A DNA stretch of 64,000 nucleotides, from NCBI RefSeq assembly GCF_044324785.1, contig NZ_CP172127.1; one strand, given 5' to 3'. Shown here one piece after another: positions 12,977-34,553 of this stretch (position 1 is the first letter of the stretch; each line of letters opens with the position of its first letter). Under the pieces are notes generated by a model. The model made no database searches. It was not told the origin of the DNA and worked only from the letters and a program-made list of their open reading frames with translations. This DNA is from Escherichia coli. Its GTDB lineage: Bacteria > Pseudomonadota > Gammaproteobacteria > Enterobacterales > Enterobacteriaceae. The translations under genes and the position numbers were made by a program.

Positions 12977-13409
12977 TAAACCCTGCACTTATCTGTTTAG
13001 AGCAATTCCGTGTTAGTTACACCAGGCAAACATTAACTATAGCTAATGATTTATAGCCATATAAACCATTAGTCGCTCTTGACCTTTCCTGACACTTCCC
13101 TTGTTCGCAATAATATTCTGTTTAGTCGCTGTTTATAAATATCATGCATAATGAAATCGTCATGTTATTTAGCGACATAAAATGTTTTTGCAAATACTCT
13201 CTACAACAAGTGCTGCAATAAACTTGTTGTGATTAGGTGTCCTTGTAATTTAAAGATATTATCGTTCTTCGTGAAATGTAATAACCCTGGAAACTATATT
13301 CTCAGGGCAACAACCAATTAAGAATGATTCTTGTTTTATAAGCAATAACAGAATGACTTAATTGTTAACTCTCTTTATTCAGCTACTTAAATATAAATTT
13401 TGGAGAATT

Positions 13410-13973
13410 ATGAAACTCAAACATGTCGGTATGATTGTCGTTTCTGTGTTGGCGATGTCGTCTGCTGCGGTAAGCGCAGCCGAGGGTGATGAATCAGTAA
13501 CGACCACTGTTAATGGCGGTGTTATTCATTTTAAAGGTGAAGTGGTAAATGCCGCTTGTGCGATTGATTCAGAATCAATGAACCAAACGGTTGAGCTGGG
13601 TCAGGTCCGTTCTTCTCGTCTGGCTAAAGCGGGTGACCTCAGCTCCGCCGTTGGCTTCAATATCAAGCTGAATGATTGTGATACCAATGTTTCCAGTAAT
13701 GCAGCTGTTGCATTCCTGGGTACTACTGTCACCAGTAATGACGACACATTAGCGCTGCAGAGTTCAGCGGCAGGCTCTGCCCAAAATGTCGGTATTCAAA
13801 TTTTGGACCGTACGGGCGAGGTATTAATACTTGATGGTGCCACTTTCAGCGCTAAAACTGACTTGATTGATGGCACGAATATACTGCCGTTCCAGGCTCG
13901 TTATATTGCTCTCGGGCAGTCAGTAGCTGGTACTGCAAACGCTGATGCGACCTTCAAAGTTCAATATCTATAA
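13410..13973 (+). CDS. F9 (Yde/Fml) fimbrial major subunit, FimA-like
   Basis: 187-aa protein with signal peptide [23 protein letters not shown] and fimbrial subunit C-terminus ...[16 protein letters not shown] upstream; first gene of the chaperone-usher operon. Confidence 0.85.
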
Positions 13974-14326
13974 TTCAATCTTAAGGTGGCTATACGTCAT
14001 CTGAAATTGAAACAGGGTGTGTGTGGCATGGCTACGCACACCCGAGAAATTCACCAATGTTCATCTCATTATTAATGAGGAATAGTTTGTGTTTTGGAGC
14101 GGTATGAAAAAATCACATAATATCTAAACGTTCAATAAACAACAGTAGTTAAACTTACTGTTATTTAGAGTATTTACTTTATAGCAAGGTTTTCCTATTA
14201 AAAGAGAACCAACATTTATTTCAAACGCATTAAGTCTGGAAACCCGGCGACTCGCCAATGTATTAGCAACATTTACCGATTGTCTGATGTAACGGTTTCC
14301 CCGCTTATCCTCTTAACACATGGAGA

Positions 14327-15046
14327 ATGCATCAGATGCAAACTACGCGTACCCCCTACTCTGTTTCCTTTATGGCGACAGTGTTACTTTTATTGGTCTT
14401 TGCTTGCCATAGCACCATTGCCAACGCAGCTGTCGCACTGGGTGCGACGCGGGTAATTTATCCGGCAAACCAGAAACAGGTTTTATTGCCTGTCACGAAT
14501 AATGATCCTGCCAGTGTCTATCTCATTCAGTCATGGATAGAAAATGCAGGTGACCAAAAAGACACCCAGTTTGTCATTACCCCACCGCTTTTTTCCATGC
14601 AAGGTAAAAAAGAGAATACGCTGCGGATAATCAACGCCACTAATCATCAGTTACCAGGCGACCGTGAAAGCCTGTTCTGGGTTAATGTTAAAGCTATTCC
14701 TGCTATGGAAAAAGACCAGAAGAATGAGAATACATTACAGCTGGCAATTATTAGCCGCATAAAAATGTTTTATCGCCCCACGAACCTGGCAATGGCACCT
14801 GAAGAAGCGCCTGCAATGCTTCGGTTTCGTCGCAGCGGCAGCAAACTCACTCTTATTAATCCAACGCCCTACTTCATTACCGTAACAAATATGAAAGCAG
14901 GAAATAGCAATCTCCCAAACACCATGGTGCCGCCAAAAGGTGAAGTATCGGTGGATATCCCGCATGCTGCAACCGGGGATATCAGTTTTCAGACGATCAA
15001 TGATTACGGTGCATTAACTCCGCGTATTAAGGCAACCATGCAGTAA
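14327..15046 (+). CDS. Periplasmic fimbrial chaperone (PapD/FimC family)
   Basis: 239-aa ORF with signal peptide and PapD-like fold features; sits between major subunit and usher; exact start (14327 or a nearby ATG) uncertain. Confidence 0.85.
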   Translation: MHQMQTTRTPYSVSFMATVLLLLVFACHSTIANAAVALGATRVIYPANQKQVLLPVTNNDPASVYLIQSWIENAGDQKDTQFVITPPLFSMQGKKENTLRIINATNHQLPGDRESLFWVNVKAIPAMEKDQKNENTLQLAIISRIKMFYRPTNLAMAPEEAPAMLRFRRSGSKLTLINPTPYFITVTNMKAGNSNLPNTMVPPKGEVSVDIPHAATGDISFQTINDYGALTPRIKATMQ

Positions 15047-15087
15047 GCCAGTGACCTAATTAATAATAAACTCAATCGGAATCAATA

Positions 15088-17739
15088 ATGACATCCTTTC
15101 GTGCCGCATTTAAGGCATATCGTATGCATCAGGTGTTACTACTGCCTCGCTTTGCACGGCTTACCATTGCCCTTGGCTTAGCAACTGCGGTTTTTCCCGT
15201 TGACGCAGAGTATTATTTTAATCCACGGTTTTTAAGCAATGATCTTGCTGAATCTGTCGATTTATCCGCCTTTACTAAGGGACGCGAGGCACCACCTGGT
15301 ACATATCGGGTCGACATTTATTTGAACGACGAATTTATGACTAGTCGGGATATTACTTTTATTGCAGATGATAATAACGCAGATCTCATCCCATGCCTGA
15401 GTACAGATCTTCTTGTCAGTCTTGGCATAAAAAAATCAGCGTTATTAGACAATAAAGAACATTCGGCAGAAAAACATGTGCCGGACAACAGCGCATGCAC
15501 ACCACTTCAGGATCGTTTGGCCGACGCATCAACTGAGTTTGATGTTGGTCAGCAACATCTGTCACTCTCCGTTCCGCAAATTTATGTTGGCAGAATGGCT
15601 CGCGGCTATGTTTCTCCTGATCTGTGGGAAGAAGGAATAAATGCTGGGCTGCTAAACTATAGTTTTAATGGTAATTCTATTAATAATCGTAGTAACCATA
15701 ATGCAGGAAAATCCAACTATGCATATTTGAATTTACAGAGTGGCATCAACATTGGTAGTTGGCGACTGCGCGATAACTCAACGTGGAGTTATAACAGTGG
15801 GAGTAGCAATTCATCTGACAGCAATAAATGGCAGCATATCAATACGTCGGCTGAACGTGACATTATTCCCTTACGCTCACGCTTAACGGTAGGTGATAGT
15901 TATACCGATGGCGATATTTTTGATAGTGTGAACTTTCGTGGCCTCAAAATAAATTCAACAGAAGCGATGTTGCCCGATAGCCAACATGGTTTCGCTCCGG
16001 TGATTCATGGTATTGCCCGCGGCACCGCACAAGTGAGTGTAAAACAGAATGGATACGATGTTTATCAGACTACTGTCCCACCCGGCCCTTTTACTATTGA
16101 TGATATCAACTCTGCGGCCAATGGTGGTGATCTGCAAGTAACCATAAAAGAGGCAGACGGCAGTATTCAGACATTATATGTTCCTTATTCGTCTGTTCCG
16201 GTTCTCCAACGTGCTGGATATACGCGTTATGCGCTTGCCATGGGGGAATATCGTAGTGGAAATAACCTGCAAAGCTCCCCCAAGTTCATACAAGGTAGCT
16301 TGATGCATGGACTGGAAGGAAACTGGACACCTTATGGCGGAATGCAAATTGCAGAAGATTATCAGGCCTTCAACCTTGGTATTGGTAAAGATTTAGGACT
16401 TTTTGGTGCCTTTTCTTTCGATATCACGCAGGCCAATACGACACTTGCAGATGGCACCCGTCACAGCGGGCAATCGATTAAATCCGTCTACAGCAAATCC
16501 TTCTACCAGACGGGAACCAATATCCAGGTCGCAGGATATCGCTATTCTACGCAAGGTTTTTATAACTTATCCGACAGTGCCTACAGTCGAATGAGTGGTT
16601 ACACCGTCAAGCCTCCTACCGGAGACAGCAACGAGCAGACACAATTTATTGATTATTTTAATCTGTTCTACAGTAAGCGTGGTCAGGAACAAATAAGCAT
16701 CTCTCAGCAGCTTGGAAATTACGGTACGACATTTTTCAGTGCCAGTCGCCAAAGTTACTGGAACACGTCACGCAGCGACCAGCAAATATCATTTGGATTA
16801 AATGTGCCGTTTGGTGATATTACGACTTCGCTGAATTACAGCTTTTCCAATAATATATGGCAAAACGATCGGGATCATTTACTTGCTTTTACGCTTAATG
16901 TTCCCTTCAGTCATTGGATGCGTACAGACAGTCAGTCGGCATTTCGTAATTCAAACGCCAGTTACAGTATGTCAAACGATTTGAAAGGCGGCATGACCAA
17001 TCTATCAGGGGTTTATGGCACTCTGCTGCCGGATAATAACCTGAATTATAGCGTTCAGGTAGGTAACACCCACGGAGGTAATACATCGTCTGCCACCAGT
17101 GGTTACAGTTCTCTTAATTATCGTGGAGCTTACGGTAATACGAATGTCGGTTACAGTCGGAGTGGGGACAGCAGCCAGATTTATTACGGAATGAGTGGTG
17201 GGATTATTGCTCATGCTGATGGCATCACCTTTGGTCAGCCGCTGGGCGACACAATGGTTCTGGTTAAGGCTCCTGGCGCTGATAATGTCAAAATAGAGAA
17301 CCAGACCGGTATTCATACCGACTGGCGTGGCTATGCCATATTACCATTTGCGACAGAATATAGAGAAAATCGTGTCGCTCTTAACGCGAATTCCCTTGCA
17401 GATAATGTTGAACTGGATGAAACAGTAGTCACTGTCATCCCAACTCACGGTGCTATTGCCAGAGCAACATTTAATGCACAAATCGGCGGGAAAGTATTAA
17501 TGACGTTGAAGTACGGTAATAAGAGCGTTCCATTCGGTGCAATTGTCACACACGGAGAGAATAAAAATGGCAGCATTGTCGCGGAAAACGGTCAGGTTTA
17601 TCTGACTGGACTTCCACAGTCAGGGAAATTACAGGTTTCATGGGGCAAAGATAAAAACTCAAACTGTATTGTCGAGTACAAGCTTCCTGAAGTTTCTCCT
17701 GGTACCTTACTGAACCAGCAGACAGCAATCTGTCGCTAA
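15088..17739 (+). CDS. ydeT: Fimbrial outer membrane usher (FimD family), full length
   Basis: 883-aa ORF typical of ushers; K-12 ydeT is an N-terminally truncated usher as I recall, here it appears intact. Confidence 0.88.
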   Translation: MTSFRAAFKAYRMHQVLLLPRFARLTIALGLATAVFPVDAEYYFNPRFLSNDLAESVDLSAFTKGREAPPGTYRVDIYLNDEFMTSRDITFIADDNNADLIPCLSTDLLVSLGIKKSALLDNKEHSAEKHVPDNSACTPLQDRLADASTEFDVGQQHLSLSVPQIYVGRMARGYVSPDLWEEGINAGLLNYSFNGNSINNRSNHNAGKSNYAYLNLQSGINIGSWRLRDNSTWSYNSGSSNSSDSNKWQHINTSAERDIIPLRSRLTVGDSYTDGDIFDSVNFRGLKINSTEAMLPDSQHGFAPVIHGIARGTAQVSVKQNGYDVYQTTVPPGPFTIDDINSAANGGDLQVTIKEADGSIQTLYVPYSSVPVLQRAGYTRYALAMGEYRSGNNLQSSPKFIQGSLMHGLEGNWTPYGGMQIAEDYQAFNLGIGKDLGLFGAFSFDITQANTTLADGTRHSGQSIKSVYSKSFYQTGTNIQVAGYRYSTQGFYNLSDSAYSRMSGYTVKPPTGDSNEQTQFIDYFNLFYSKRGQEQISISQQLGNYGTTFFSASRQSYWNTSRSDQQISFGLNVPFGDITTSLNYSFSNNIWQNDRDHLLAFTLNVPFSHWMRTDSQSAFRNSNASYSMSNDLKGGMTNLSGVYGTLLPDNNLNYSVQVGNTHGGNTSSATSGYSSLNYRGAYGNTNVGYSRSGDSSQIYYGMSGGIIAHADGITFGQPLGDTMVLVKAPGADNVKIENQTGIHTDWRGYAILPFATEYRENRVALNANSLADNVELDETVVTVIPTHGAIARATFNAQIGGKVLMTLKYGNKSVPFGAIVTHGENKNGSIVAENGQVYLTGLPQSGKLQVSWGKDKNSNCIVEYKLPEVSPGTLLNQQTAICR

Positions 17740-17752
17740 GGAACAAGAGATT

Positions 17753-18283
17753 ATGAAATACAATAACATTATTTTCCTCGGTTTATGTCTGGGGTTAACC
17801 ACCTATTCTGCTTTATCCGCAGATAGCGTTATTAAAATTAGCGGGCGCGTCCTCGATTATGGCTGCACAGTCTCATCGGATTCGCTTAATTTTACCGTAG
17901 ATCTCCAAAAAAACAGTGCCAGACAATTTCCAACGACCGGTAGCACAAGTCCAGCCGTCCCTTTTCAGATTACGTTAAGTGAATGCAGTAAAGGGACTAC
18001 GGGGGTTCGGGTTGCATTTAACGGTATTGAGGATGCAGAAAATAATACTCTGTTGAAACTGGATGAAGGAAGCAATACGGCCTCCGGTTTGGGTATAGAA
18101 ATACTGGACGGAAATATGCGTCCGGTGAAATTGAATGACCTTCATGCCGGGATGCAGTGGATCCCACTGGTACCAGAACAGAACAATATTTTGCCTTACT
18201 CCGCTCGTCTGAAGTCAACTCAGAAGTCCGTCAATCCGGGACTGGTGAGGGCTTCGGCAACCTTTACCCTTGAATTTCAATAA
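17753..18283 (+). CDS. ydeS: Fimbrial minor subunit (FimF-like)
   Basis: 176-aa secreted pilin-like protein with signal peptide and conserved Cys pair; operon position matches ydeS. Confidence 0.85.
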   Translation: MKYNNIIFLGLCLGLTTYSALSADSVIKISGRVLDYGCTVSSDSLNFTVDLQKNSARQFPTTGSTSPAVPFQITLSECSKGTTGVRVAFNGIEDAENNTLLKLDEGSNTASGLGIEILDGNMRPVKLNDLHAGMQWIPLVPEQNNILPYSARLKSTQKSVNPGLVRASATFTLEFQ

Positions 18284-18295
18284 TCAGAGTCAGAT

Positions 18296-18799
18296 ATGAA
18301 AAGACTTCACAAGAGGTTCCTGTTAGCTACGTTTTGCGCGTTATTCACAGCAACTCTCCAGGCCGCCGATGTCACTATCACTGTTAATGGTCGGGTAGTC
18401 GCTAAACCCTGCACTATTCAAACCAAAGAAGCTAACGTTAATCTCGGGGATCTTTATACGCGCAATCTGCAACAACCTGGTTCTGCATCAGGGTGGCACA
18501 ATATTACTTTGTCATTAACCGATTGTCCGGTTGAAACAAGTGCAGTGACGGCAATCGTGACAGGTTCAACTGACAATACGGGTTATTACAAAAATGAAGG
18601 TACTGCCGAAAATATTCAGATAGAGCTAAGGGATGACCAGGATGCGACGTTAAAAAATGGCGATAGCAAAACGGTTATTGTTGATGAGATCACTCGTAAT
18701 GCACAGTTTCCACTTAAGGCAAGAGCTATCACGGTGAATGGAAACGCAAGCCAGGGAACGATCGAGGCGCTAATCAATGTGATCTACACCTGGCAATAA
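18296..18799 (+). CDS. ydeR: Fimbrial minor subunit (FimG-like)
   Basis: 167-aa pilin-like protein with signal peptide; operon position matches ydeR. Confidence 0.85.
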   Translation: MKRLHKRFLLATFCALFTATLQAADVTITVNGRVVAKPCTIQTKEANVNLGDLYTRNLQQPGSASGWHNITLSLTDCPVETSAVTAIVTGSTDNTGYYKNEGTAENIQIELRDDQDATLKNGDSKTVIVDEITRNAQFPLKARAITVNGNASQGTIEALINVIYTWQ

Positions 18800-18858
18800 C
18801 GTCGATTCGATTTTCTTAGCCTCCTTTTTAAATCAATTTTTTAACCTTAGGATATATC

Positions 18859-19773
18859 ATGGGTAAAACAATAAGTATGAAGCTTCTGTTCGGTATTTAT
18901 CTTCTATTAATGGCAGGCAAAGTTTTTGCCTTCAGTTGTAATGTCGATGGCGGGTCAAGTATTGGAGCAGGTACAACCTCTGTTTATGTTAATCTCGACC
19001 CTGTAATACAACCGGGCCAGAATCTGGTTGTAGACTTGTCTCAACATATCAGTTGCTGGAATGATTACGGCGGCTGGTACGACACTGATCATATAAACCT
19101 GGTACAAGGCTCAGCTTTCGCAGGCTCTCTACAGTCATATAAAGGATCGCTGTACTGGAATAATGTGACCTACCCCTTCCCGTTGACGACAAATACTAAT
19201 GTATTAGATATTGGTGATAAGACACCGATGCCATTACCGTTAAAACTCTATATTACCCCAGTCGGGGCGGCCGGTGGAGTTGTCATAAAAGCCGGGGAAG
19301 TTATTGCCCGTATTCATATGTATAAAATTGCCACGTTAGGAAGCGGAAATCCGCGTAATTTTACGTGGAATATTATTTCAAATAACAGTGTTGTTATGCC
19401 AACAGGCGGCTGCACTGTTGATAGTCGTAATGTCACCGTGAATCTCCCGGACTTTCCTGGAAGCGCAGAAATACCCCTTGGCGTATATTGCTCAAGCGAA
19501 CAAAAGCTCTCATTTTATCTTTCGGGTGCCACCACTGACAGTGCCCGACAAGTGTTTGCTAACACAGCACCAGATGCAACAAAAGCATCGGGAGTGGGTG
19601 TCTCTCTGATGCGTAATGGAAAAATACTGGCTACGGGAGAAAACGTCTCCCTGGGGACAGTAAATAAAAGCAAAGTACCTCTGGGTTTAAGCGCAACCTA
19701 TGGACAAACAGGAAACAAGGTTGCAGCCGGAACAGTTCAGTCAGTCATTGGTGTCACTTTTATCTATGAATAA
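18859..19773 (+). CDS. ydeQ: FimH-like two-domain fimbrial tip adhesin of F9 fimbriae (FmlH/YdeQ)
   Basis: 304-aa protein, signal peptide then FSCNVDGG... lectin-domain start resembling FimH FACKTANG, plus C-terminal pilin domain. Confidence 0.85.
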
Positions 19774-19845
19774 TTGTGATTTTGACATTAGTCTATGCGT
19801 TCCATTCACGAAAATTGTGCGGATAATTATTTTGTGAAGGCTATT

Positions 19846-19863
19846 ATCCTACACTTGTAAGAA
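19846..19863. promoter_or_regulatory. EvgA box upstream of ydeP (ATCCTACA-CT-TGTAAGAA)
   Basis: Near-perfect match to the EvgA inverted repeat TTCYTACA-N2-TGTARGAA; ydeP is a known EvgA target. Confidence 0.7.
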
Positions 19864-20111
19864 AATCCGCGCACAATTGAAGCCAGAGTCTTATTTTTTA
19901 TATTGAAAAACATGTTAATTTAAACACTATGAGAGATGATGCTTAACTTATCGTATTTATACCATTCTATTATTTAACGATAATAGATTAAAAATAGAAA
20001 GAGAGTAGTCCCCTACTCTTATATATCCAGGTTGATGATAAACCTATTATATATACTGTGCATCATCGCTATTACAAATCCTAATAATTCATTTCCACAC
20101 AGGATAAGCAG

Positions 20112-22391
20112 ATGAAGAAAAAAATTGAATCCTACCAGGGAGCTGCCGGTGGTTGGGGTGCTGTTAAATCCGTAGCAAATGCAGTACGTAAGCAGATGGA
20201 TATACGCCAGGATGTTATTGCCATGTTTGACATGAATAAGCCAGAGGGCTTTGACTGTCCGGGATGTGCATGGCCAGATCCTAAGCACAGTGCGTCATTC
20301 GACATTTGTGAAAACGGCGCAAAAGCAATCGCCTGGGAAGTCACGGATAAGCAGGTAAATGCCTCTTTCTTTGCTGAGAATACGGTTCAATCATTACTTA
20401 CCTGGGGAGATCACGAGCTTGAGGCTGCGGGGCGTCTCACTCAGCCTTTGAAATATGATGCCGTCAGCGACTGTTACAAGCCATTAAGCTGGCAACAAGC
20501 TTTCGACGAAATAGGCGCACGCCTTCAAAGCTATAGTGATCCCAATCAGGTTGAATTCTATACTTCGGGCCGCACTTCCAATGAAGCAGCCTTTCTTTAT
20601 CAGCTTTTTGCCCGTGAATACGGGAGCAATAACTTTCCCGACTGTTCCAACATGTGCCATGAACCGACCAGCGTGGGATTGGCAGCGAGTATCGGTGTAG
20701 GTAAAGGGACCGTGTTGCTGGAAGACTTTGAGAAATGCGATTTAGTCATTTGCATTGGGCATAACCCTGGTACAAACCACCCTCGCATGTTGACTTCGTT
20801 GCGCGCTTTAGTGAAACGGGGAGCGAAAATGATCGCCATCAATCCTCTACAGGAACGTGGCCTGGAGCGATTTACCGCACCGCAAAACCCGTTTGAAATG
20901 CTGACGAACTCTGAGACTCAGTTGGCCAGTGCCTACTACAACGTGCGCATTGGTGGTGATATGGCGTTGCTCAAGGGGATGATGCGCCTGTTAATTGAGC
21001 GCGATGATGCTGCAAGCGCCGCAGGTCGGCCCTCATTGCTTGATGACGAATTTATTCAAACGCATACCGTCGGCTTTGACGAGCTACGCCGTGACGTTCT
21101 CAATTCCGAGTGGAAAGATATCGAACGTATTTCTGGACTAAGTCAGACACAAATCGCCGAACTGGCTGATGCATATGCCGCTGCCGAACGCACCATTATC
21201 TGTTACGGAATGGGGATCACTCAGCACGAACATGGTACCCAGAATGTACAGCAACTGGTCAATCTGCTGTTGATGAAAGGTAACATTGGCAAGCCTGGTG
21301 CGGGTATCTGCCCACTACGAGGTCACTCTAATGTACAGGGCGACCGAACCGTCGGTATCACCGAGAAACCGTCTGCAGAGTTTCTGGCTCGCCTGGGTGA
21401 GCGCTATGGTTTCACCCCACCTCATGCACCTGGACATGCTGCAATTGCCAGCATGCAAGCAATATGTACGGGGCAGGCTCGAGCATTGATCTGCATGGGG
21501 GGCAACTTTGCACTGGCAATGCCAGATCGGGAAGCGAGCGCTGTACCGTTAACGCAATTAGATTTGGCGGTACACGTAGCCACTAAGCTTAACCGCTCTC
21601 ATCTGCTGACCGCACAGCATAGCTATATTCTGCCGGTTCTTGGGCGTAGCGAGATTGACATGCAAAAAAGCGGTGCGCAGGCGGTAACCGTTGAGGATTC
21701 AATGTCGATGATTCATGCCTCGCGTGGCGTGTTAAAACCCGCCGGTGTAATGCTGAAATCAGAGTGTGCAGTGGTCGCGGGAATCGCGCAGGCAGCACTA
21801 CCCCAGAGCGTGGTAGCCTGGGAGTATCTGGTGGAAGATTATGATCGCATTCGCAATGACATTGAAGCTGTGCTGCCAGAGTTCGCCGACTATAACCAGC
21901 GCATCCGACATCCTGGAGGTTTTCACCTGATAAACGCAGCTGCTGAAAGGCGCTGGAGGACGTCGTCAGGTAAGGCTAATTTCATTACCAGTAAAGGGCT
22001 GTTAGAAGATCCCTCTTCAGCGTTTAACAGTAAGCTAGTCATGGCGACAGTACGCAGTCACGATCAGTACAACACGACGATTTATGGTATGGATGATCGC
22101 TATCGAGGGGTATTCGGTCAACGAGATGTGGTCTTTATGAGTGCTAAACAAGCTAAAATTTGCCGTGTAAAAAACGGCGAAAGAGTTAATCTTATTGCGC
22201 TTACGCCAGACGGTAAGCGAAGCTCACGCCGCATGGATAGATTAAAAGTGGTCATTTACCCTATGGCTGACCGCTCACTGGTGACCTATTTTCCAGAATC
22301 GAATCACATGCTAACACTTGATAACCACGATCCATTAAGTGGCATTCCTGGCTATAAAAGTATTCCGGTTGAATTAGAACCATCAAATTAA
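20112..22391 (+). CDS. ydeP: Acid-resistance molybdopterin oxidoreductase YdeP (formate dehydrogenase-like)
   Basis: 759-aa ORF with N-terminal Cys cluster (CPGCAWPDP...) and molybdopterin oxidoreductase architecture; matches YdeP. Confidence 0.92.
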
Positions 22392-22404
22392 TTCGCCTCC
22401 TCAT

Positions 22405-22435
22405 TTCTTCTGCTGTCATCCGCACAGCAGAAGAA
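22405..22435 (+). terminator. Hairpin terminator after ydeP
   Basis: Perfect 11-bp stem TTCTTCTGCTG / CAGCAGAAGAA, 9-nt loop, followed by TTCCTCATT. Confidence 0.5.
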
Positions 22436-22510
22436 TTCCTCATTGACCATTGTCGCGCAATTTACTCACATGTGCTAAATTTAAACTGCTCGTTATAAGA
22501 TATATACCTC

Positions 22511-22528
22511 CTCCTACAGCTGTAAGAA
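22511..22528. promoter_or_regulatory. EvgA box upstream of safA-ydeO (CTCCTACA-GC-TGTAAGAA)
   Basis: Match to the EvgA inverted-repeat consensus about 110 bp upstream of safA; safA-ydeO is a known EvgA-activated operon. Confidence 0.7.
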
Positions 22529-22639
22529 ACTCCGCTCAGTACTGAAGCGCCAGTCCTATTTCCTCTACTCTCCAGCCTGTTATATTAAGCATACTGATTA
22601 ACGATGCTTAACGTCATTCGTTTAATAAACACATTTGAA

Positions 22640-22831
22640 ATGCATGCGACCATAGTGAAAAATAAAATCACGCAAAGAGACAACTATAAAGGGATCATGT
22701 CTGTAATTGTGGTTGTCTTATTACTGACCCTTACGGTGATAGCCATTTTTTCGGCAATTGATCAGCTGGGTATTTCAGAAATGGGTCGCATTGCAAGGGA
22801 TCTTACACATTTCATTATCAATAGTTTGTAA
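22640..22831 (+). CDS. safA: Small membrane protein SafA, PhoQ-activating connector (63 aa here)
   Basis: MHATIVKNKITQRDNYK... with single transmembrane segment; ORF opens at 22604; C-terminus two residues shorter than K-12 SafA as I recall it. Confidence 0.85.
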   Translation: MHATIVKNKITQRDNYKGIMSVIVVVLLLTLTVIAIFSAIDQLGISEMGRIARDLTHFIINSL

Positions 22832-22911
22832 GACTGAAAATAAACAGCAAATTATAAATATGAAATGTTAAAAAAGTATCGATAAAAACTTTATTGTTTT
22901 AAGGAGATAAA

Positions 22912-23673
22912 ATGTCGCTCGTTTGTTCTGTTATATTTATTCATCATGCCTTCAACGCTAACATTTTAGATAAAGATTACGCCTTCTCAGACGGCGAGAT
23001 CCTGATGGTAGATAACGCTGTTCGTACGCATTTTGAACCTTATGAGCGGCATTTCAAAGAAATCGGATTTAATGAAAATACCATTAAAAAATATCTACAA
23101 TGCACTAACATCCAGACAGTGACGGTGCCTGTTCCTGCGAAGTTTTTACGTGCTTCAAATGTACCGACTGGATTGCTTAATGAAATGATTGCTTATCTCA
23201 ACTCGGAAGAACGCAATCATCATAATTTTTCAGAACTTTTGCTTTTTTCTTGCCTGTCTATTTTTGCCGCATGCAAAGGTTTCATTACACTATTAACTAA
23301 CGGTGTGCTATCCGTTTCCGGGAAAGTGAGAAATATTGTCAACATGAAGCTGGCGTACCCATGGAAGCTGAAAGATATTTGTGACTGCCTGTACATTAGT
23401 GAAAGCCTGTTGAAGAAAAAACTTAAGCAAGAGCAAACGACATTCTCACAGATTCTTTTAGATGCCAGAATGCAGCACGCAAAAAATTTGATACGCGTAG
23501 AAGGTTCAGTCAATAAAATTGCCGAACAATGTGGTTATGCCAGTACATCTTATTTTATTTATGCGTTCCGCAAACATTTCGGCAACAGTCCGAAGAGAGT
23601 TTCTAAGGAGTACCGTTGTCAAAGGCACACCGGTATGAACACGGACAACACGATGAGTGCTTTAGCTATTTGA
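22912..23673 (+). CDS. ydeO: AraC-family acid-resistance regulator YdeO
   Basis: 253-aa ORF with C-terminal AraC HTH (...YASTSYFIYAFRKHFGNSP...); downstream of safA. Confidence 0.92.
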   Translation: MSLVCSVIFIHHAFNANILDKDYAFSDGEILMVDNAVRTHFEPYERHFKEIGFNENTIKKYLQCTNIQTVTVPVPAKFLRASNVPTGLLNEMIAYLNSEERNHHNFSELLLFSCLSIFAACKGFITLLTNGVLSVSGKVRNIVNMKLAYPWKLKDICDCLYISESLLKKKLKQEQTTFSQILLDARMQHAKNLIRVEGSVNKIAEQCGYASTSYFIYAFRKHFGNSPKRVSKEYRCQRHTGMNTDNTMSALAI

Positions 23674-24074
23674 TTATTTGCTAACGAGTAGTCAACCACA
23701 CACGCTACGTAAGAATTAAATGGGGCAGCCATTTCCTGCCCCGCGTTGTTTTTAGGCGATATATTTATTGAAATAAATAAGTGACACTCATCACATATTT
23801 ATGCATTTGCATAACCTGTTGCATAATTATTTATGATCTTAATTCGGAATTTTGTCAGTAAAATACAATAATTTATTAAATATCAATAGATTAGTTGTTT
23901 ATCTGCGAGAAATTACTTAGTAGAATAGAAAGTAATGTCAACAGTTTATGGACTGTTATTTCTCTTTTTTTAGCTAAATCTGCTATCTCTTTATGTGACT
24001 AACTTCACTTACATCCACTTATTTCTCTTCGTAAAATTACTTTGGAATTAAGTACAATAAGAAGAGGAACATTT

Positions 24075-25757
24075 ATGAAGTCTGCATTAAAGAAAAGTGT
24101 CGTAAGTACCTCGATATCTTTGATACTGGCATCTGGTATGGCTGCATTTGCTGCTCATGCGGCAGATGATGTAAAGCTGAAAGCAACCAAAACAAACGTC
24201 GCTTTCTCAGACTTTACGCCGACTGAATACAGTACCAAAGGAAAGCCAAATATTATCGTACTGACCATGGATGATCTTGGTTATGGACAACTTCCTTTTG
24301 ATAAGGGATCTTTTGACCCAAAAACAATGGAAAATCGTGAAGTTGTCGATACCTACAAAATAGGGATAGATAAAGCCATTGAAGCTGCGCAAAAATCAAC
24401 GCCGACGCTCCTTTCATTAATGGATGAAGGCGTACGTTTTACTAACGGCTATGTGGCGCACGGTGTTTCCGGCCCCTCCCGCGCCGCAATAATGACCGGT
24501 CGAGCGCCCGCCCGCTTTGGTGTCTATTCCAATACCGATGCTCAGGATGGTATTCCGCTAACAGAAACTTTCCTGCCTGAATTATTCCAGAATCATGGTT
24601 ATTACACTGCAGCAGTAGGTAAATGGCACTTGTCAAAAATCAGTAATGTGCCGGTACCGGAAGATAAACAAACGCGTGACTATCATGACAACTTCACCAC
24701 ATTTTCTGCGGAAGAATGGCAACCGCAAAACCGTGGCTTTGATTACTTTATGGGATTCCACGCTGCAGGAACGGCATATTACAACTCCCCTTCACTGTTC
24801 AAAAATCGTGAACGCGTCCCCGCAAAAGGTTATATCAGCGATCAGTTAACCGATGAGGCAATTGGCGTTGTTGATCGTGCCAAAACACTTGACCAGCCTT
24901 TTATGCTTTACCTGGCTTATAATGCTCCGCACCTGCCAAATGATAATCCTGCACCGGAGCAATATCAGAAGCAATTTAATACTGGTAGTCAAACAGCAGA
25001 TAACTACTACGCTTCCGTTTATTCTGTTGATCAGGGTGTAAAACGCATTCTCGAACAACTGAAGAAAAACGGACAGTATGACAATACTATTATTCTCTTT
25101 ACCTCCGATAATGGTGCGGTTATCGATGGTCCTCTGCCGCTGAACGGGGCGCAAAAAGGCTATAAGAGTCAGACCTATCCTGGCGGTACTCACACCCCAA
25201 TGTTTATGTGGTGGAAAGGAAAACTTCAACCCGGTAATTATGACAAGCTGATATCCGCAATGGATTTCTACCCGACAGCTCTTGATGCAGCCGATATCAG
25301 CATTCCAAAAGACCTTAAGCTGGATGGCGTTTCCTTGCTGCCCTGGTTGCAAGATAAGAAACAAGGTGAGCCACATAAAAATCTGACCTGGATAACCTCT
25401 TATTCTCACTGGTTTGATGAGGAAAATATTCCCTTCTGGGATAATTACCACAAATTTGTCCGCCATCAGTCAGACGATTACCCGCATAACCCCAACACCG
25501 AAGATTTAAGCCAATTCTCTTATACGGTGAGAAATAACGATTATTCGCTAGTCTATACAGTAGAAAACAATCAGTTAGGTCTATACAAACTGACGGATCT
25601 ACAGCAAAAAGATAACCTTGCCGCCGCCAATCCGCAGGTCGTTAAAGAGATGCAAGGCGTGGTAAGAGAGTTTATCGACAGCAGCCAACCACCGCTTAGC
25701 GAGGTAAATCAGGAGAAGTTTAACAATATCAAGAAAGCACTAAGCGAAGCGAAATAA
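24075..25757 (+). CDS. ydeN: Putative sulfatase YdeN (alkaline-phosphatase superfamily), secreted
   Basis: 560-aa protein MKSALKKSVV... with signal peptide and sulfatase signature region; ORF opens 11 codons upstream at 24042. Confidence 0.9.
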   Translation: MKSALKKSVVSTSISLILASGMAAFAAHAADDVKLKATKTNVAFSDFTPTEYSTKGKPNIIVLTMDDLGYGQLPFDKGSFDPKTMENREVVDTYKIGIDKAIEAAQKSTPTLLSLMDEGVRFTNGYVAHGVSGPSRAAIMTGRAPARFGVYSNTDAQDGIPLTETFLPELFQNHGYYTAAVGKWHLSKISNVPVPEDKQTRDYHDNFTTFSAEEWQPQNRGFDYFMGFHAAGTAYYNSPSLFKNRERVPAKGYISDQLTDEAIGVVDRAKTLDQPFMLYLAYNAPHLPNDNPAPEQYQKQFNTGSQTADNYYASVYSVDQGVKRILEQLKKNGQYDNTIILFTSDNGAVIDGPLPLNGAQKGYKSQTYPGGTHTPMFMWWKGKLQPGNYDKLISAMDFYPTALDAADISIPKDLKLDGVSLLPWLQDKKQGEPHKNLTWITSYSHWFDEENIPFWDNYHKFVRHQSDDYPHNPNTEDLSQFSYTVRNNDYSLVYTVENNQLGLYKLTDLQQKDNLAAANPQVVKEMQGVVREFIDSSQPPLSEVNQEKFNNIKKALSEAK

Positions 25758-25808
25758 CTAAACCTTCATGCGGCGGATTTTTCCGCCGCCTTATTGAGCG
25801 AGATAGCG

Positions 25809-26966
25809 ATGCACGTTACAGCCAAGCCCTCCAGTTTTCAATGTAATCTCAAATGTGATTACTGTTTTTACCTTGAAAAAGAGTCGCAGTTTACTCATGA
25901 AAAATGGATGGATGACAGCACTCTGAAAGAGTTCATCAAACAATATATCGCAGCGTCTGGCAATCAGGTCTATTTTACCTGGCAAGGGGGTGAACCCACT
26001 CTGGCTGGCCTGGATTTTTTCCGTAAAGTTATTCACTATCAACAACGCTATGCAGGCCAAAAACGTATTTTTAATGCATTACAAACGAATGGCATTTTAT
26101 TGAGTAATGAATGGTGTGCCTTTCTCAAAGAACATGAGTTTCTGGTTGGTATCTCGATCGATGGCCCCCAGGAGCTACATGACCGTTACAGACGCAGTAA
26201 TTCAGGTAACGGTACTTTTGCAAAAGTGATAGCAGCCATCGAGCGTCTGAAATCATATCAAGTAGAGTTTAATACGTTAACCGTCATTAATAACGTTAAT
26301 GTCCATTACCCTCTTGAGGTTTATCATTTTTTAAAATCTATCGGCAGTAAACATATGCAATTTATCGAATTGCTCGAAACCGGGACGCCGAATATTGATT
26401 TCAGTGGTCATAGTGAGAACACATTCCGTATCATTGATTTTTCTGTGCCTCCTACGGCTTATGGCAAGTTTATGTCGACCATTTTTATGCAATGGGTTAA
26501 AAACGATGTGGGTGAAATTTTCATCCGTCAGTTTGAAAGCTTTGTCAGCCGTTTTTTGGGGAATGGGCATACCAGTTGTATTTTCCAGGAGTCCTGCAAG
26601 GATAATCTGGTTGTTGAAAGTAATGGAGACATTTACGAATGCGACCATTTTGTCTATCCACAGTACAAAATTGGAAACATTAATAAATCTGAACTCAAAA
26701 CGATGAACAGTGTTCAACTGACAGCGCAAAAAAAACGGATTTCAGCGAAATGTCAGCAATGTGCATATAAACCTATCTGCAATGGCGGTTGTCCTAAGCA
26801 TCGTATTACTAAAGTAAACAATGAGACTGTTTCCTATTTTTGCGAAGGTTATAAAATCCTTTTTTCAACCATGGTACCTTATATGAACGCCATGGTGGAG
26901 TTAGCTAAGAACAGAGTACCGCTTTACCACATTATGGATGTTGCAAAACAAATGGAGAATAATTAA
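25809..26966 (+). CDS. ydeM: Radical-SAM anaerobic sulfatase-maturating enzyme homolog YdeM
   Basis: CNLKCDYC radical-SAM cluster motif near the N-terminus plus C-terminal Cys-rich SPASM-like region; partner of ydeN; ORF opens at 25794. Confidence 0.9.
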
Positions 26967-27256
26967 TAACGCTCCCCCTTAGTTCCATTCTTAGCCTCCT
27001 TCTTATGACCTTAACAAGGCACCCGACATAAATTCCTGTCGGGTGTTTCGTCATCATCATCTTCCCTTGCGAAAATCCTGGCATACGTGGTATTCGTCAG
27101 GGCATTAGCAATACCCTTGATTATCAATAGCATAACCATAACCACTGAAAATTAAATATTTCTTTATATTTCATATTGTTAAATGATACTTAAATAAATT
27201 TCATCAGTAAATCATTGCCATAGATAATCATTGGATGGCACAATCAATTTTCGCTA

Positions 27257-28942
27257 ATGATAACCATTCCCATTACATTTCGTATGTTGATAGCAAAGTA
27301 TCTCTGTCTGCTGAAGCCCTTTTGGCTGCGTAAGAATAATAAAACTTCAGTGCTGTTAATCATTATTATCCTCGCCATGATCCTTGGCGTTGTTAAAATT
27401 CAGGTCTGGTTAAACGACTGGAATAATGATTTTTTCAATGCGCTAAGCCAGAAAGAAACCGATAAGCTTTGGCAGCTTGTTCTTTGGTTCCCTGCCCTGC
27501 TGGGGATCTTTGTATTAATATCCGTAAACAAAACATGGTTAATTAAACTACTGACTATTCGCTGGCGCGAATGGTTAACAGATTACTACCTTAATCGCTG
27601 GTTTGCAGATAAAAACTACTACTTCACGCAAATCTACGGCGAGCATAAAAATACAGATAACCCTGACCAACGTATCGCTGAGGACATTCTCTTACTGATC
27701 AGTAAAACGCTCAACCTTTCATTTGGCTTCATCCAGTCGCTTAGCATGCTGATCACCTTTACCGTTATTCTTTGGCAAAGCGCGGGTACGCTCTCATTCA
27801 CTGTTGGTGGAACAGAATGGAATATCCAGGGGTATATGGTCTATACCGTCGTGCTCATTGTGATCGGTGGAACTTTATTTACTCATAAGGTTGGTAAACG
27901 TATTCGTCCGCTTAATGTGGAAAAACAACGTAGCGAAGCGACATTTCGAACTAATCTTGTGCAGCATAATAAGCAGGCTGAACTGATTGCGCTAAGCAAT
28001 GCTGAGTCTCTACAACGCCAGGAGTTGAGCGACAATTTTCATACCATTAAAGAGAACTGGCATCGTTTAATGAATCGTCAGCGGTGGCTTGATTACTGGC
28101 AGAATATTTATTCGCGCTCGCTTAGCGTTCTTCCCTACTTTCTGTTATTGCCGCAGTTTATTAGCGGACAGATCAATCTGGGCGGACTGATGAAATCGCG
28201 CCAGGCATTTATGCTGGTATCGAACAATTTAAGCTGGTTTATTTATAAATATGATGAACTTGCTGAACTGGCTGCGGTTATCGATCGCTTGTATGAGTTC
28301 CATCAACTCACCGAACAGCGCCCTACGAATAAGCCTAAAAATTGCCAACATGCGGTACAAGTGGCTGACGCGAGTATTCGTACTCCTGATAATAAGATCA
28401 TATTAGAGAACCTAAACTTTCATGTTTCGCCAGGCAAATGGCTATTACTGAAAGGTTACTCTGGTGCGGGAAAAACCACACTGCTTAAAACATTATCCCA
28501 CTGCTGGCCGTGGTTTAAAGGTGATATTTCTTCTCCTGCTGACAGTTGGTATGTGTCACAAACACCGTTAATCAAAAGCGGCTTACTGAAAGAGATTATT
28601 TGTAAAGCACTTCCCCTGCCTGTAGACGATAAATCGTTGAGCGAAGTACTGCATCAGGTTGGTCTGGGGAAATTGGCTGCGCGTATTCATGACCACGATC
28701 GCTGGGGCGATATTCTTTCCAGCGGCGAAAAACAACGTATCGCCCTGGCACGATTAATTTTACGACGTCCGAAATGGATATTTCTTGACGAAACTACCTC
28801 TCATCTTGAGGAACAAGAGGCTATCCGCTTACTGCGTTTAGTGCGTGAAAAACTACCCACAAGCGGCGTCATTATGGTTACACATCAACCCGGTGTCTGG
28901 AACCTGGCTGATGATATTTGTGACATTAGCGCGGTTTTATAA
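27257..28942 (+). CDS. yddA: Fused permease/ATPase ABC transporter YddA (SbmA/BacA-like membrane domain)
   Basis: 561-aa ORF; Walker A GYSGAGKTT and signature LSSGEKQR in the C-terminal half. Confidence 0.92.
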   Translation: MITIPITFRMLIAKYLCLLKPFWLRKNNKTSVLLIIIILAMILGVVKIQVWLNDWNNDFFNALSQKETDKLWQLVLWFPALLGIFVLISVNKTWLIKLLTIRWREWLTDYYLNRWFADKNYYFTQIYGEHKNTDNPDQRIAEDILLLISKTLNLSFGFIQSLSMLITFTVILWQSAGTLSFTVGGTEWNIQGYMVYTVVLIVIGGTLFTHKVGKRIRPLNVEKQRSEATFRTNLVQHNKQAELIALSNAESLQRQELSDNFHTIKENWHRLMNRQRWLDYWQNIYSRSLSVLPYFLLLPQFISGQINLGGLMKSRQAFMLVSNNLSWFIYKYDELAELAAVIDRLYEFHQLTEQRPTNKPKNCQHAVQVADASIRTPDNKIILENLNFHVSPGKWLLLKGYSGAGKTTLLKTLSHCWPWFKGDISSPADSWYVSQTPLIKSGLLKEIICKALPLPVDDKSLSEVLHQVGLGKLAARIHDHDRWGDILSSGEKQRIALARLILRRPKWIFLDETTSHLEEQEAIRLLRLVREKLPTSGVIMVTHQPGVWNLADDICDISAVL

Positions 28943-28979
28943 AAACAATAAAAGCCCTGCTGTACGGAGATATAAATAA

Positions 28980-31352
28980 ATGAAGCGAGTTCTTATTCCT
29001 GGCGTCATTTTATGTGGCGCTGATGTGGCGCAGGCCGTCGATGACAAAAACATGTACATGCATGTTTTTGAAGAGATGACGGTCTATGCTCCTGTCCCTG
29101 TACCCGTAAACGGCAACACGCATTACACCAGTGAAAGCATCGAGCGTTTACCGACCGGGAATGGCAATATCAGCGATCTGCTGAGAACCAACCCTGCGGT
29201 ACGTATGGATTCAACGCAAAGTACCTCGTTGAACCAGGGAGATATTCGCCCTGAGAAAATCTCTATTCACGGTGCGTCGCCCTACCAGAATGCCTATTTG
29301 ATTGACGGTATTAGTGCAACTAATAACCTGAACCCAGCGAATGAGTCCGATGCCAGTAGTGCAACCAATATTAGCGGGATGTCACAGGGGTATTATCTTG
29401 ATGTCAGCTTACTGGACAATGTGACGCTTTATGACAGTTTTGTGCCGGTTGAATTCGGTCGCTTCAATGGCGGGGTAATTGATGCAAAGATCAAACGCTT
29501 CAATGCTGATGATAGCAGCGTGAAACTGGGTTATCGCACTACGCGTTCGGACTGGTTAACATCGCATATCGATGAGAATAACAAGAGCGCATTTAATCAA
29601 GGTTCTTCAGGAAGTACTTATTACTCTCCAGATTTTAAAAAGAACTTTTATACTTTGTCATTTAATCAGGAACTCGCTGATAACTTCGGCGTTACCGCCG
29701 GTTTATCGCGCCGCCAGTCTGATATCACCCGCGCGGATTATGTTTCGAATGACGGCATTGTCGCCGGTCGGGCACAGTATAAAAACGTTATCGATACTGC
29801 ATTGAGCAAATTTACCTGGTTTGCCAGCGACCGCTTTACCCACGATTTAACCTTAAAATATACCGGCTCCAGTCGTGATTATAATACCAGCACCTTCCCG
29901 GAGTCTGATCGCGAAATGGGTAATAAATCCTATGGTCTGGCATAGGATATGGATACCCAGCTCGCATGGGCCAAACTGCGTACCACCGTTGGTTGGGATC
30001 ATATTAGTGATTATACCCGTCACGATCATGACATCTGGTACACCGAACTTTCATGTACATATGGTGATATTTCAGGGCGTTGCACCCGTGGCGGATTAGG
30101 ACACATTTCCCAGGCTGTAGATAATTACACCTTCAAAACACGCCTGGACTGGCAAAAATTCGCCGTGGGTGATGTTTCGCATCAACCCTACTTCGGCGCG
30201 GAATACATCTATTCCGATGCATGGACTGAACGCCATAACCAGTCTGAATCCTATGTGATTAATGCTGCCGGAAAGAAAACTAACCATACCATTTACCATA
30301 AAGGTAAAGGCAGCCTGGGAATTGACAACTACACGCTGTATATGGCGGATCGCATTAGCTGGCGGAATGTGTCGTTAATGCCCGGCGTGCGGTATGACTA
30401 TGACAACTATCTGTCAAACCACAATATCTCCCCGCGCTTTATGACGGAATGGGATATTTTTGCTGATCAAACCTCAATGATTACCGCCGGTTATAACCGT
30501 TACTATGGCGGGAATATTCTTGATATGGGATTACGTGACATCCGCAATAGCTGGACGGAATCGGTATCAGGCAATAAAACCCTGACGCGTTATCAGGATT
30601 TGAAAACACCTTATAACGATGAACTGGCAATGGGATTGCAGCAAAAAATCGGTAAGAACGTTATTGCGCGCGCAAACTATGTTTACCGTGAAGCGCATGA
30701 TCAAATCAGCAAAAGCAGTCGTACCGACAGCGCGACTAAAACCACCATTACTGAATATAACAACGATGGCAAAACCAAAACGCATTCGTTTAACCTCAGT
30801 TTTGAACTGGCCGAACCCCTGCATATCCGCCAGGTAGATATTAACCCACAAATTGTCTTTAGCTATATCAAGAGCAAGGGCAACTTGTCGTTAAACAATG
30901 GTTATGAGGAGAGCAATACCGGTGATAACCAGGTGGTTTATAACGGTAATCTGGTCTCTTACGATAGCGTTCCAGTGGCAGATTTTAATAACCCATTAAA
31001 GATCTCCTTAAACATGGATTTCACGCATCAACCGAGCGGGTTGGTGTGGGCGAATACGCTGGCCTGGCAAGAAGCGCGTAAAGCTCGCATTATCCTCGGT
31101 AAGACGAATGCGCAATACATCAGCGAATATTCAGATTACAAGCAGTATGTTGACGAAAAACTGGATAGCAGCCTGACCTGGGACACCCGCTTGTCCTGGA
31201 CGCCACAATTTCTGAAACAACAAAACCTGACGATCAGTGCCGATATTCTCAATGTACTGGATAGCAAAACCGCGGTTGATACAACGAATACCGGTGTGGC
31301 GACCTACGCCAGTGGCCGTACTTTTTGGCTTGATGTCAGCATGAAATTTTAA
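28980..31352 (+). pseudogene. yddB: TonB-dependent-receptor-like outer membrane protein YddB interrupted by an in-frame amber codon (TAG at 29943-29945)
   Basis: Two same-frame ORFs (28980-29945, 321 aa; 29949-31352, 467 aa) separated only by TAG; 321+1+1+467 = 790 codons, the length I recall for K-12 YddB; C-terminal ...FWLDVSMKF is a typical beta-barrel terminus. Confidence 0.8.
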
Positions 31353-31396
31353 TAGTTCGGATTTTACTTAACCGGGTAAATTCGCCCGGTTTTCGC

Positions 31397-34474: not shown

Positions 34475-34553
34475 CACGAGTCCTTTGCACTTGCTTACTT
34501 TATCGATAAATCCTACTTTTTTAATGCGATCCAATCATTTTAAGGAGTTTAAA

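Follow-up and report, generated by a model that had tools for sequence, protein, structure and literature searches.

Two EvgA-type repeats and a GAD box in an Escherichia coli-type chromosome segment are probable counterparts of known acid-resistance control sites

The DNA analysed here is one continuous stretch of 64,000 nucleotides (the window), and the two EvgA boxes and the GAD box that it contains are already known elements of the EvgAS–YdeO–GadE acid-resistance cascade. The three motifs are very probably the counterparts, in an E. coli-type genome other than K-12, of activator sites already characterised for the acid-resistance (AR2) network; finding the boxes in another genome of the E. 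coli lineage confirms only that the cis-elements of the circuit are conserved. We computed the presence of the motifs, their alignment with the K-12 repeats, their conservation and the intactness of the genes downstream. The window covers an E. coli-type stretch of chromosome from lsrR to ddp and beyond, reverse-complemented with respect to K-12, and its gene order and annotation are the same as those of K-12 and strain 2012C-4221. The genes evgAS, gadE and rcsB are located outside it. The coordinates of the features are given in Table 1.

Table 1. Positions in the window of the motifs, promoter elements and genes considered in this study
Feature	Position	Strand	Remarks
AT-rich tract	12442..34553	.	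43.6% GC; ydeP, inside it, is an exception at 49.9% GC
EvgA-type 18-bp inverted repeat, 5' of ydeP	19846..19863	+	ATCCTACACTTGTAAGAA; ATCCTACA-CT-TGTAAGAA
Paralogous segment, copy 1	19847..19947	+	Box, spacer, extended -10, first ~18 nt of transcript
Alternative sigma-70-like promoter of ydeP	19877..19904	+	TTGAAG-16-TATATT; consensus scan
Putative extended -10 of ydeP	19913..19921	+	TG-T-TAATTT; invariant in 8 strains
ydeP	20112..22391	+	759 aa, intact; putative molybdopterin oxidoreductase, acid-resistance; 49.9% GC
Perfect 12-bp hairpin	22405..22435	+	TTCTTCTGCTGT...ACAGCAGAAGAA; directly 3' of ydeP stop codon
EvgA-type 18-bp inverted repeat, 5' of safA-ydeO	22511..22528	+	CTCCTACAGCTGTAAGAA; CTCCTACA-GC-TGTAAGAA
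Paralogous segment, copy 2	22512..22612	+	Extended -10 TG-T-TATATT at 22578-22586
safA	22640..22831	+	63 aa; codon 64 is TAA
ydeO	22912..23673	+	253 aa; AraC-family acid-stress regulator; 39.5% GC
GAD box (GadE / GadE-RcsB site)	34455..34474	+	TTAGGATTTTGTTATTTAAA; exact 20-mer, 5' of gadB
gadB and gadC	34554..37645	+	gadB 34554-35954, gadC 36110-37645; both intact

EvgA boxes

The initial annotation had placed two EvgA inverted repeats in the window, and both were found exactly at those coordinates, each with a single mismatch to TTCYTACA-NN-TGTARGAA. The pattern common to them, TCCTACANNTGTAAGAA, has two matches in the window at up to two mismatches against 0.09 expected, and only 1 of 100 shuffled sequences reached two. 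Their assignment to the ydeP and safA-ydeO promoters also stands: in our alignments the first falls on the K-12 repeat AGCCTACACCTGTAAGAA and the second on the K-12 repeat TGCCTACAGCTGTAAGAA, and both point the same way, toward two known EvgA target operons. The same inverted repeat recurs 5' of emrK, frc and yfdX in K-12 (four matches against 0.29 expected). Repeats bound by EvgA in K-12, at ydeP, safA/b1500-ydeO, emrKY, yfdX, frc and yegR, were reportedly described by Masuda and Church in 2003 and by Itou et al. in 2009. The sequences upstream of emrK/evgA, frc and yfdX have been given as EvgA-bound inverted repeats (PMC3720670), and, according to reviews, EvgA binds the promoters of ydeP and of safA-ydeO (PMC8147483, PMC9496106); the consensus and these statements of binding rest on such secondary sources together with our motif test on the K-12 EvgA targets.

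Eight diverse strains were compared (the window, K-12 and six others). The core CCTACA..TGTAAGAA of the ydeP box is invariant among them, only the second position of the box and the second of the spacer being variable, and in the safA box variation is limited to box positions 1–2 and spacer position 2. The window resembles K-12 in the 18-bp architecture of 8, 2 and 8 bp, in having the TGTAAGAA half-site nearest the gene, and in the targets and orientation of the repeats. It differs in having T instead of G at position 2 of both boxes, so that both left half-sites lie nearer to the consensus, and in the spacer of the ydeP box, which is CT in the window and CC in K-12. Of the eight strains, only the window has this T in the safA box.

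GAD box

The exact 20-bp GAD box reported upstream of gadB was recovered with no mismatch to the 20-mer, and it is the sole match in the window at up to three mismatches (0.02 expected). The GAD box of gadA and gadBC is said to have been described by Castanie-Cornet and Foster in 2001 and by Ma et al. in 2003. Assuming a transcription start 27 nt before the ATG at 34554, the box of the window spans -72 to -53 with its centre at -62.5, and its reference position is about 63 bp 5' of the gadA/gadBC start site. A gadB leader of 27 nt has been given for K-12 (PMC11210196), where the 20-bp GadE consensus and a GadE ChIP-exo signal at gadBC, with RNA-seq beside the ChIP-exo, are also on record (PMC4918353), and the factor on the GAD box is described as a GadE-RcsB heterodimer (PMC8147483). 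Compared with the known gadA/gadBC site (Seo et al. 2015, PMC4918353), the 20-mer and its location are the same and no difference is detectable. A GadX/W motif match 5' of gadB was not significant by itself.

Could these matches to the EvgA and GAD motifs be functionless chance occurrences in AT-rich DNA? The motifs are short and sited in AT-rich intergenic DNA, and when three mismatches to the degenerate EvgA consensus are permitted at least two matches occur in 18 of 100 shuffles. However, both EvgA boxes have only one mismatch, are co-oriented 5' of two known target operons and are kept in every strain looked at, and the GAD box is exact, so that we regard chance as very unlikely. Conserved position and cross-strain conservation effectively refute it.

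Core promoters and start sites

A putative extended -10 element of ydeP, TG-T-TAATTT, is in register with TG-T-TATATT of safA, and each EvgA repeat lies about 52 bp 5' of its extended -10. We infer the start sites and the positions relative to them, as well as the mode of activation considered below: transcription of ydeP would begin at about 19929, with the centre of the box at about -74.5, and by the register with ydeP that of safA would begin at about 22593–22594. A ydeP leader from -178 has been used in K-12 (PMC11210196), and this position maps to 19929 of the window through the K-12 alignment. The leader lengths of -178 for ydeP and -27 for gadB agree with the conserved -10-like elements, although the '-178' leader of that study (PMC11210196) may be the boundary of a construct instead of a mapped start site.

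The consensus scan also gave a sigma-70-like arrangement for ydeP, TTGAAG-16-TATATT, from which transcription would start at about 19911 with the box at about -56.5. The hexamers TTGAAG and TATATT have also been given for the ydeQ/ydeP spacer (PMC3946193). We favour this architecture less, because in safA the hexamer corresponding to the second one differs from strain to strain and has no A at position 2.

Paralogous promoter segments

The two EvgA boxes open a 101-bp ungapped paralogous promoter segment, in which 70 of 101 positions are identical, and are not independent occurrences. The Smith-Waterman score of copy 1 against copy 2 is 39, compared with a mean of 10.8 (sd 1.5) for shuffled sequences and, as a second null, with a top score of 16 in comparisons with 839 other 300-bp segments of the window. 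The similarity begins exactly at the box and is even along the segment (17, 13, 13, 13 and 13 identities per 20 nt), and the DNA 5' of the box matches at the level of chance (6/30). In the Smith-Waterman comparisons, neither the frc, yfdX and emrK promoters of K-12 nor the rest of the window showed similarity above the level of the box. Our repeat search missed the segment, its seeds being too short and not extended at 69% identity.

GCCTGTTATATTAA of the safA promoter is invariant across the eight strains. The polymorphism of the 101-bp segment is not significantly lower than that of the flanking intergenic DNA in these eight strains, and we therefore make no claim of selective constraint on the spacer. 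A scan of the whole collection for the exact pattern CTACANNTGTAAGAAANTCCGC (box plus TCCGC), which is blind to diverged copies, gave four loci; one is labelled E. coli and the others a Nanosynbacter MAG, a Methanomethylophilaceae MAG and an uncultured bacterium, with no other bacterial genus among the labels, and the Nanosynbacter-labelled locus carries the E. coli gene order from ydeR to yddB.

Among the best 120 matches to YdeP, the closest homologue outside Escherichia/Shigella is that of Edwardsiella (E. tarda), 87% identical in amino acids, and no homologue was found between the E. coli/Shigella group and this genus. Edwardsiella ydeP has 61.6% GC and housekeeping neighbours (moa, nrdAB and gyrA), and a search for an EvgA box there found none. 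The ydeP product of the window is 99% identical to E. coli YdeP clusters. The strongest hint of a lateral origin, which comes from these comparisons, falls on ydeP, the sole gene that is not AT-rich.

All this bears on a reading in which the boxes are the 5' ends of one promoter cassette of about 100 bp that was duplicated within the locus, the copying having placed ydeP under EvgA; its 52-bp spacer, extended -10 and first ~18 transcribed nucleotides may hold further shared control, such as a YdeO-linked feedback repression or secondary contacts with EvgA. The ungapped alignment that starts at the box with evenly spread identity, the lack of anything comparable in the window or in the frc, yfdX and emrK promoters, and the box-less Edwardsiella gene, with no other genus closer among the best 120 YdeP matches, all argue for it; in addition, YdeO is described as a repressor of its own expression and, indirectly, of ydeP (PMC11210196). 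Against it count the polymorphism of the segment, the protein clusters at 90% identity, which mask other Escherichia species and make the taxonomic gap a rough one, and the inability of an exact-pattern scan to detect diverged copies. On balance we lean toward a duplicated cassette with modest confidence. The fuller proposal, in which one EvgA cassette exists twice, as the promoters of ydeP and of safA-ydeO, its duplication recruited a laterally acquired ydeP into the EvgA regulon and the spacer carries an extra, hitherto undescribed shared site, is tentative and rather doubtful. If the duplication is real, it would be a compact example of a gene wired into a regulon through promoter copying, and the 52-bp spacer would be the place to seek additional control.

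Base composition and H-NS

The genes from ydeP through yddB had been described as visibly more AT-rich than the dos and ddp genes. This holds for the group as a whole (43.7% GC, against 53.1% for ddp) and for safA to yddB (42.1%), but not for ydeP itself, which at 49.9% is close to dosP (50.4%) and above dosC (44.6%). Moreover, the AT-rich tract is wider than described, extending from the end of hipA to the start of gadB and covering the ydeQRS fimbrial operon and pqqL as well. The lowest GC contents are found in intergenic DNA and leaders, namely the ydeP leader (27–31%), the gap between safA and ydeO (20%) and the region upstream of gadB (28.8%), and gadB, at the edge of the tract, has 53.8%. 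The argument from AT-richness is to be corrected to this extent: AT-richness does not extend to the enzyme genes ydeP and gadB, and the excess is mainly in regulatory DNA and in neighbouring unrelated operons. Nor do the data bear out a single acid-resistance block, since ydeN/ydeM, yddA/yddB and pqqL are interposed between the regulated operons, and our motif scans of the window found no EvgA or GadE box around them; the block includes genes for which neither EvgA nor GadE control has been reported.

The initial annotation took the AT-richness as consistent with horizontally acquired, H-NS-silenced DNA; to the reading of the tract as a genomic island of this kind we give somewhat less than an even chance. 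The tract is indeed poorer in GC than positions 43534–64000 (52.6%); strain MP1 lacks a 13-kb segment holding safA and ydeO (PMC5706723); binding of H-NS has been published for several promoters of the tract (PMC2984483, PMC3946193); and the H-NS motif has 15 matches in the window where 6.0 would be expected, an enrichment that is only suggestive. However, composition alone is insufficient for a claim of horizontal acquisition. The window has neither a tRNA gene nor flanking direct repeats of at least 25 nt, and the annotation of the corresponding regions of K-12 and 2012C-4221 shows no integrase, IS or other mobility gene. About 98% of the complete E. coli genomes (5307–5390 of 5426) carry the locus, and therefore any acquisition would be ancient. 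Furthermore, the tract is a patchwork of operons unrelated to one another, broken by ydeP and bordered by gadB, and its AT excess is largely intergenic.

In published work on K-12, fragments of the ydeP and ydeO promoters are bound by H-NS in vitro (PMC2984483), and an HNS flag is attached to the ydeQ/ydeP spacer (PMC3946193). EvgA might be mainly an anti-silencer, clearing H-NS off promoter and leader DNA that is very rich in AT, and not a direct recruiter of RNA polymerase. Consistent with this are the H-NS binding just cited (PMC2984483), the low GC content of the ydeP leader (27–28%) and of the safA-ydeO spacer (20%), and the selection of the HNS-flagged ydeQ/ydeP spacer in genomic SELEX with RNA polymerase holoenzyme alone (PMC3946193), which suggests that the core promoter can work without an activator. 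On the other hand, ydeP and safA share a fixed distance from box to -10, from which frc, yfdX and emrK deviate by eye by only a few bases, and this fits a position-dependent activator. In addition, no match to the H-NS nucleation motif at up to one mismatch was found in either EvgA promoter, so that the window-wide enrichment carries no weight for these two. We consider a mainly anti-silencing role unlikely. The locus is like the acid fitness island (slp-gadA) in its AT-rich regulatory DNA, in H-NS repression opposed by dedicated activators and in control by GadE, GadX and GadW (PMC2984483, PMC4918353), but it is a separate chromosomal region, mixes acid-resistance operons with sulfatase, ABC/TonB/PqqL and fimbrial operons, and has enzyme genes, ydeP and gadB, of average GC content.

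Proposed course of activation

That EvgA, GadE and H-NS bind and regulate these promoters is taken over here, by analogy, from the K-12 literature. A dimer of phosphorylated EvgA, a NarL/FixJ-type response regulator, would bind the 18-bp repeats of ydeP and safA-ydeO and activate both promoters when the pH is mildly acidic; with the centre of the box at about -74.5, it would probably act in a class-I-like manner on weak, AT-rich, H-NS-bound promoters. YdeO would next activate gadE, and GadE together with RcsB would bind the GAD box, centred at about -62.5, 5' of gadBC. BvgA of Bordetella is a homologue of EvgA, likewise of the NarL/FixJ type, whose upstream inverted repeat lies far 5' of the -35 of a weak promoter, and at BvgA promoters the cooperative binding of additional dimers extends as far as the -35 region. 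The two systems are alike in having such a regulator on an upstream inverted repeat, whereas an EvgA counterpart of the extra cooperative dimers, on the 52-bp spacer, is hypothetical.

Other features of the locus

A search with Rfam families gave no hit across the whole window, the long ydeP leader included. The product of safA, 65 aa in K-12, is two codons shorter in the window (Table 1). Directly after ydeP lies a perfect hairpin that was not among the calls of a terminator scan requiring a T tail; it is terminator-like, without a T-run, and is unchanged across the eight strains.

Regulatory sites upstream of ydeP, safA and gadB

The two EvgA-type inverted repeats and the GAD box flagged in the initial annotation are real: all three motifs lie at exactly the coordinates claimed. 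The reading built on these motifs is largely the already known biology of the EvgAS-YdeO-GadE network. Positions of the sites and of the associated promoter elements are listed in the table.

Regulatory and promoter elements in the window
Feature	Sequence	Position	Remarks
EvgA-type inverted repeat, ydeP	ATCCTACACTTGTAAGAA	19846-19863	ydeP ATG (20112) 249 bp downstream
EvgA-type inverted repeat, safA	CTCCTACAGCTGTAAGAA	22511-22528	safA ATG (22640) 112 bp downstream
Extended -10-like element, ydeP	TG-T-TAATTT	19913-19921	8 nt upstream of 19929; invariant in 8 strains
Corresponding element, safA	TG-T-TATATT	22578-22586	register exactly as in ydeP; also invariant
Alternative ydeP promoter	TTGAAG-16-TATATT	19877-19904	also in PMC3946193; EvgA box would sit at about -56.5
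GAD box	TTAGGATTTTGTTATTTAAA	34455-34474	ends 80 bp upstream of gadB ATG (34554)

Allowing up to two mismatches, the shared EvgA pattern has two matches in the window against 0.09 expected, and each box differs from the consensus TTCYTACA-NN-TGTARGAA at a single position. Aligned with K-12, the window repeats are the counterparts of the K-12 repeats at the two genes, AGCCTACACCTGTAAGAA in front of ydeP and TGCCTACAGCTGTAAGAA in front of safA. The motif was tested independently on the K-12 evgA neighbourhood, where four inverted repeats were found (0.29 expected), upstream of emrK/evgA, frc and yfdX. The frc repeat is a perfect palindrome, the yfdX upstream region carries two copies, and the repeats of both genes are inverted repeats bound by EvgA (PMC3720670). 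In all EvgA sites compared, the gene-proximal half-site, TGTAAGAA, is better conserved than the distal one. Box positions 1-2 and the second spacer base are the only ones that vary among eight diverse E. coli sequences, which include K-12, O157:H7 and an O25:H4 strain; position 2 is T in both window boxes and G in K-12, so that the window is slightly nearer to the consensus. By analogy with K-12, for which secondary literature describes binding and regulation, EvgA would bind these sites and activate transcription in the window strain.

The GAD box is the sole match in the window at up to three mismatches (0.02 expected). Its 20-mer is identical to the published GadE site; ChIP-exo places GadE at gadBC, with >50-fold activation (PMC4918353), and GadE works on the box together with RcsB (PMC8147483). 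With a gadB start site at 34527, the box would span -72 to -53, centred at -62.5. This agrees with the position of about -63 described for the GAD box. The H-NS nucleation motif TCGATAAATT has two overlapping one-mismatch matches at 34497-34512, which form the palindrome ACTTTATCGATAAATC and cover about -30 to -15, where the gadB core promoter is inferred to lie; 15 such matches occur window-wide against 6.0 expected. At 34307-34326, roughly 210 bp before the start site of gadB, AGGTCTGATTTTTACGTGAT differs by one mismatch from the published GadX/GadW ChIP-exo motif, a match that is not significant alone (0.34 expected).

A promoter segment shared by ydeP and safA

The EvgA boxes of ydeP and safA are not independent of each other. 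Positions 19847-19947 and 22512-22612 form an ungapped 101-bp alignment with 70 identical positions, which begins right at the EvgA box and, passing the extended -10 common to both promoters, reaches into the leader. The identical positions are evenly distributed (17, 13, 13, 13 and 13 per 20 nt), and the match falls to chance level (6/30) in the 30 bp upstream of the boxes. The Smith-Waterman score of the two upstream regions is 39, compared with 10.8 ± 1.5 for shuffled sequences and a maximum of 16 among 839 other window segments. Other EvgA promoters share nothing beyond the box with these segments, which look like copies of a duplicated promoter cassette. Polymorphism within the 101 bp is not significantly below that of the flanks in eight strains.

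Published leaders begin at -178 for ydeP and at -27 for gadB (PMC11210196), and the former falls on position 19929 when the window is aligned with K-12. From this leader start and the shared extended -10 register, both EvgA boxes would lie between about -83 and -66 (centre -74.5), a class-I-like position. The alternative TTGAAG-16-TATATT promoter would place the ydeP box closer to the start; the corresponding safA sequence differs from strain to strain and does not have the key A at position 2, and for this reason the extended -10 architecture, with predicted start sites, is favoured.

Base composition and origin of the region

The claim that ydeP-yddB is more AT-rich than the dos and ddp genes is right in part: the stretch as a whole has 43.7% G+C (42.1% for safA-yddB) versus 53.1% for ddp, but ydeP itself, at 49.9%, is level with dosP (50.4%) and above dosC (44.6%). 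The extent claimed is too narrow: the AT-rich tract runs from 12442 to 34553 (43.6% G+C), with the fimbrial operon and pqqL inside it. For gadB the value is 53.8%. The lowest values belong to regulatory DNA, namely the ydeP leader (27-28%), the safA-ydeO spacer (20%) and the region upstream of gadB (28.8%).

The region had been read as a horizontally acquired, H-NS-silenced acid-resistance block. H-NS has a binding preference for promoter fragments of ydeP and ydeO (PMC2984483), and the ydeQ/ydeP spacer is flagged HNS in an RpoD SELEX catalogue (PMC3946193); H-NS antagonism may operate in the window strain as in K-12. A 13-kb stretch with safA and ydeO is missing from strain MP1 (PMC5706723). 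Searches for tRNA genes and flanking direct repeats found none, the matching parts of K-12 and 2012C-4221 have no annotated integrase or IS, nearly all E. coli carry the region, and the tract is a mosaic of unrelated operons. Because of these features, such an origin is plausible for parts of the tract as an ancient event, but composition does not demonstrate it. The EvgA and GAD sites stand, whereas the G+C argument and the block framing are overstated.

Only ydeP has positive evidence of lateral origin, yet it is not AT-rich. Among the top 120 YdeP matches, in which 90% clustering hides other Escherichia species, the closest protein outside E. coli/Shigella is from Edwardsiella tarda (87% amino acid identity), with no other genus in between. 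The Edwardsiella gene (positions 6001-8280 of its locus; 61.6% G+C) has the housekeeping genes moaABCDE, nrdAB and gyrA as neighbours and lacks an EvgA box. This pattern would fit an old lateral transfer of ydeP, with promoter copying bringing the gene under EvgA control. An exact-pattern scan of the genome collection with a 22-nt E. coli promoter pattern returned four loci only. No other bacterial genus appears among their labels, and the two that could be placed are E. coli-type. In a contig from a metagenome-assembled genome (MAG) labelled Candidatus Nanosynbacter, the genes from ydeR to yddB stand in the E. coli order, and this contig is probably a binning contaminant; one from a MAG labelled Methanomethylophilaceae archaeon also matches the 22-nt pattern.

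Gene order and strain distribution

The window is a chromosome segment of E. coli type that runs as the reverse complement of K-12, with the order lsrR/lsrK, a large autotransporter gene, hipBA, a fimbrial operon (ydeQRS and usher), ydeP, safA, ydeO, ydeN, ydeM, yddA, yddB, pqqL, gadB, gadC, digH, dosC, dosP and ddpXABCDF. Of 5426 complete E. coli genomes, 5390 have a match to a 4-kb query around the boxes, and in 5307 the match covers at least 80% of the query; identity is mostly 95-99% and at best 99.1%. For the 24 kb from 26000 to 50000, none of the 5426 complete RefSeq genomes exceeds 99% identity; the best value, 98.5%, implies that the source lineage is about 1.5% diverged there from all of them. 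By contrast, the 338-bp ydeQ-ydeP spacer is 100% identical to that of strain WP4-S18-ESBL-07. The source lineage is absent from the set, and recombination seems to have made the locus a mosaic.

Several smaller differences were observed. The intact 1822-aa ORF at 5174-10642 occupies the place of the pseudogene yneO in K-12 and of a truncated ECSE_1600-family autotransporter in 2012C-4221. An in-frame TAG at codon 322 (29943-29945) divides yddB (28980-31352), a TonB-dependent receptor gene annotated as one intact 2373-bp CDS in K-12 and 2012C-4221, into ORFs of 321 and 467 aa. In safA, TAA at codon 64 (22829-22831) gives 63 aa versus 65 aa in K-12, trimming by two codons the periplasmic C-terminus, a region reported as the PhoQ contact. 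Directly 3' of the ydeP stop, a hairpin with a perfect 12-bp stem, a 7-nt loop and no T-run (22405-22435), invariant in eight strains, may be a terminator-like or RNA-stabilising element.
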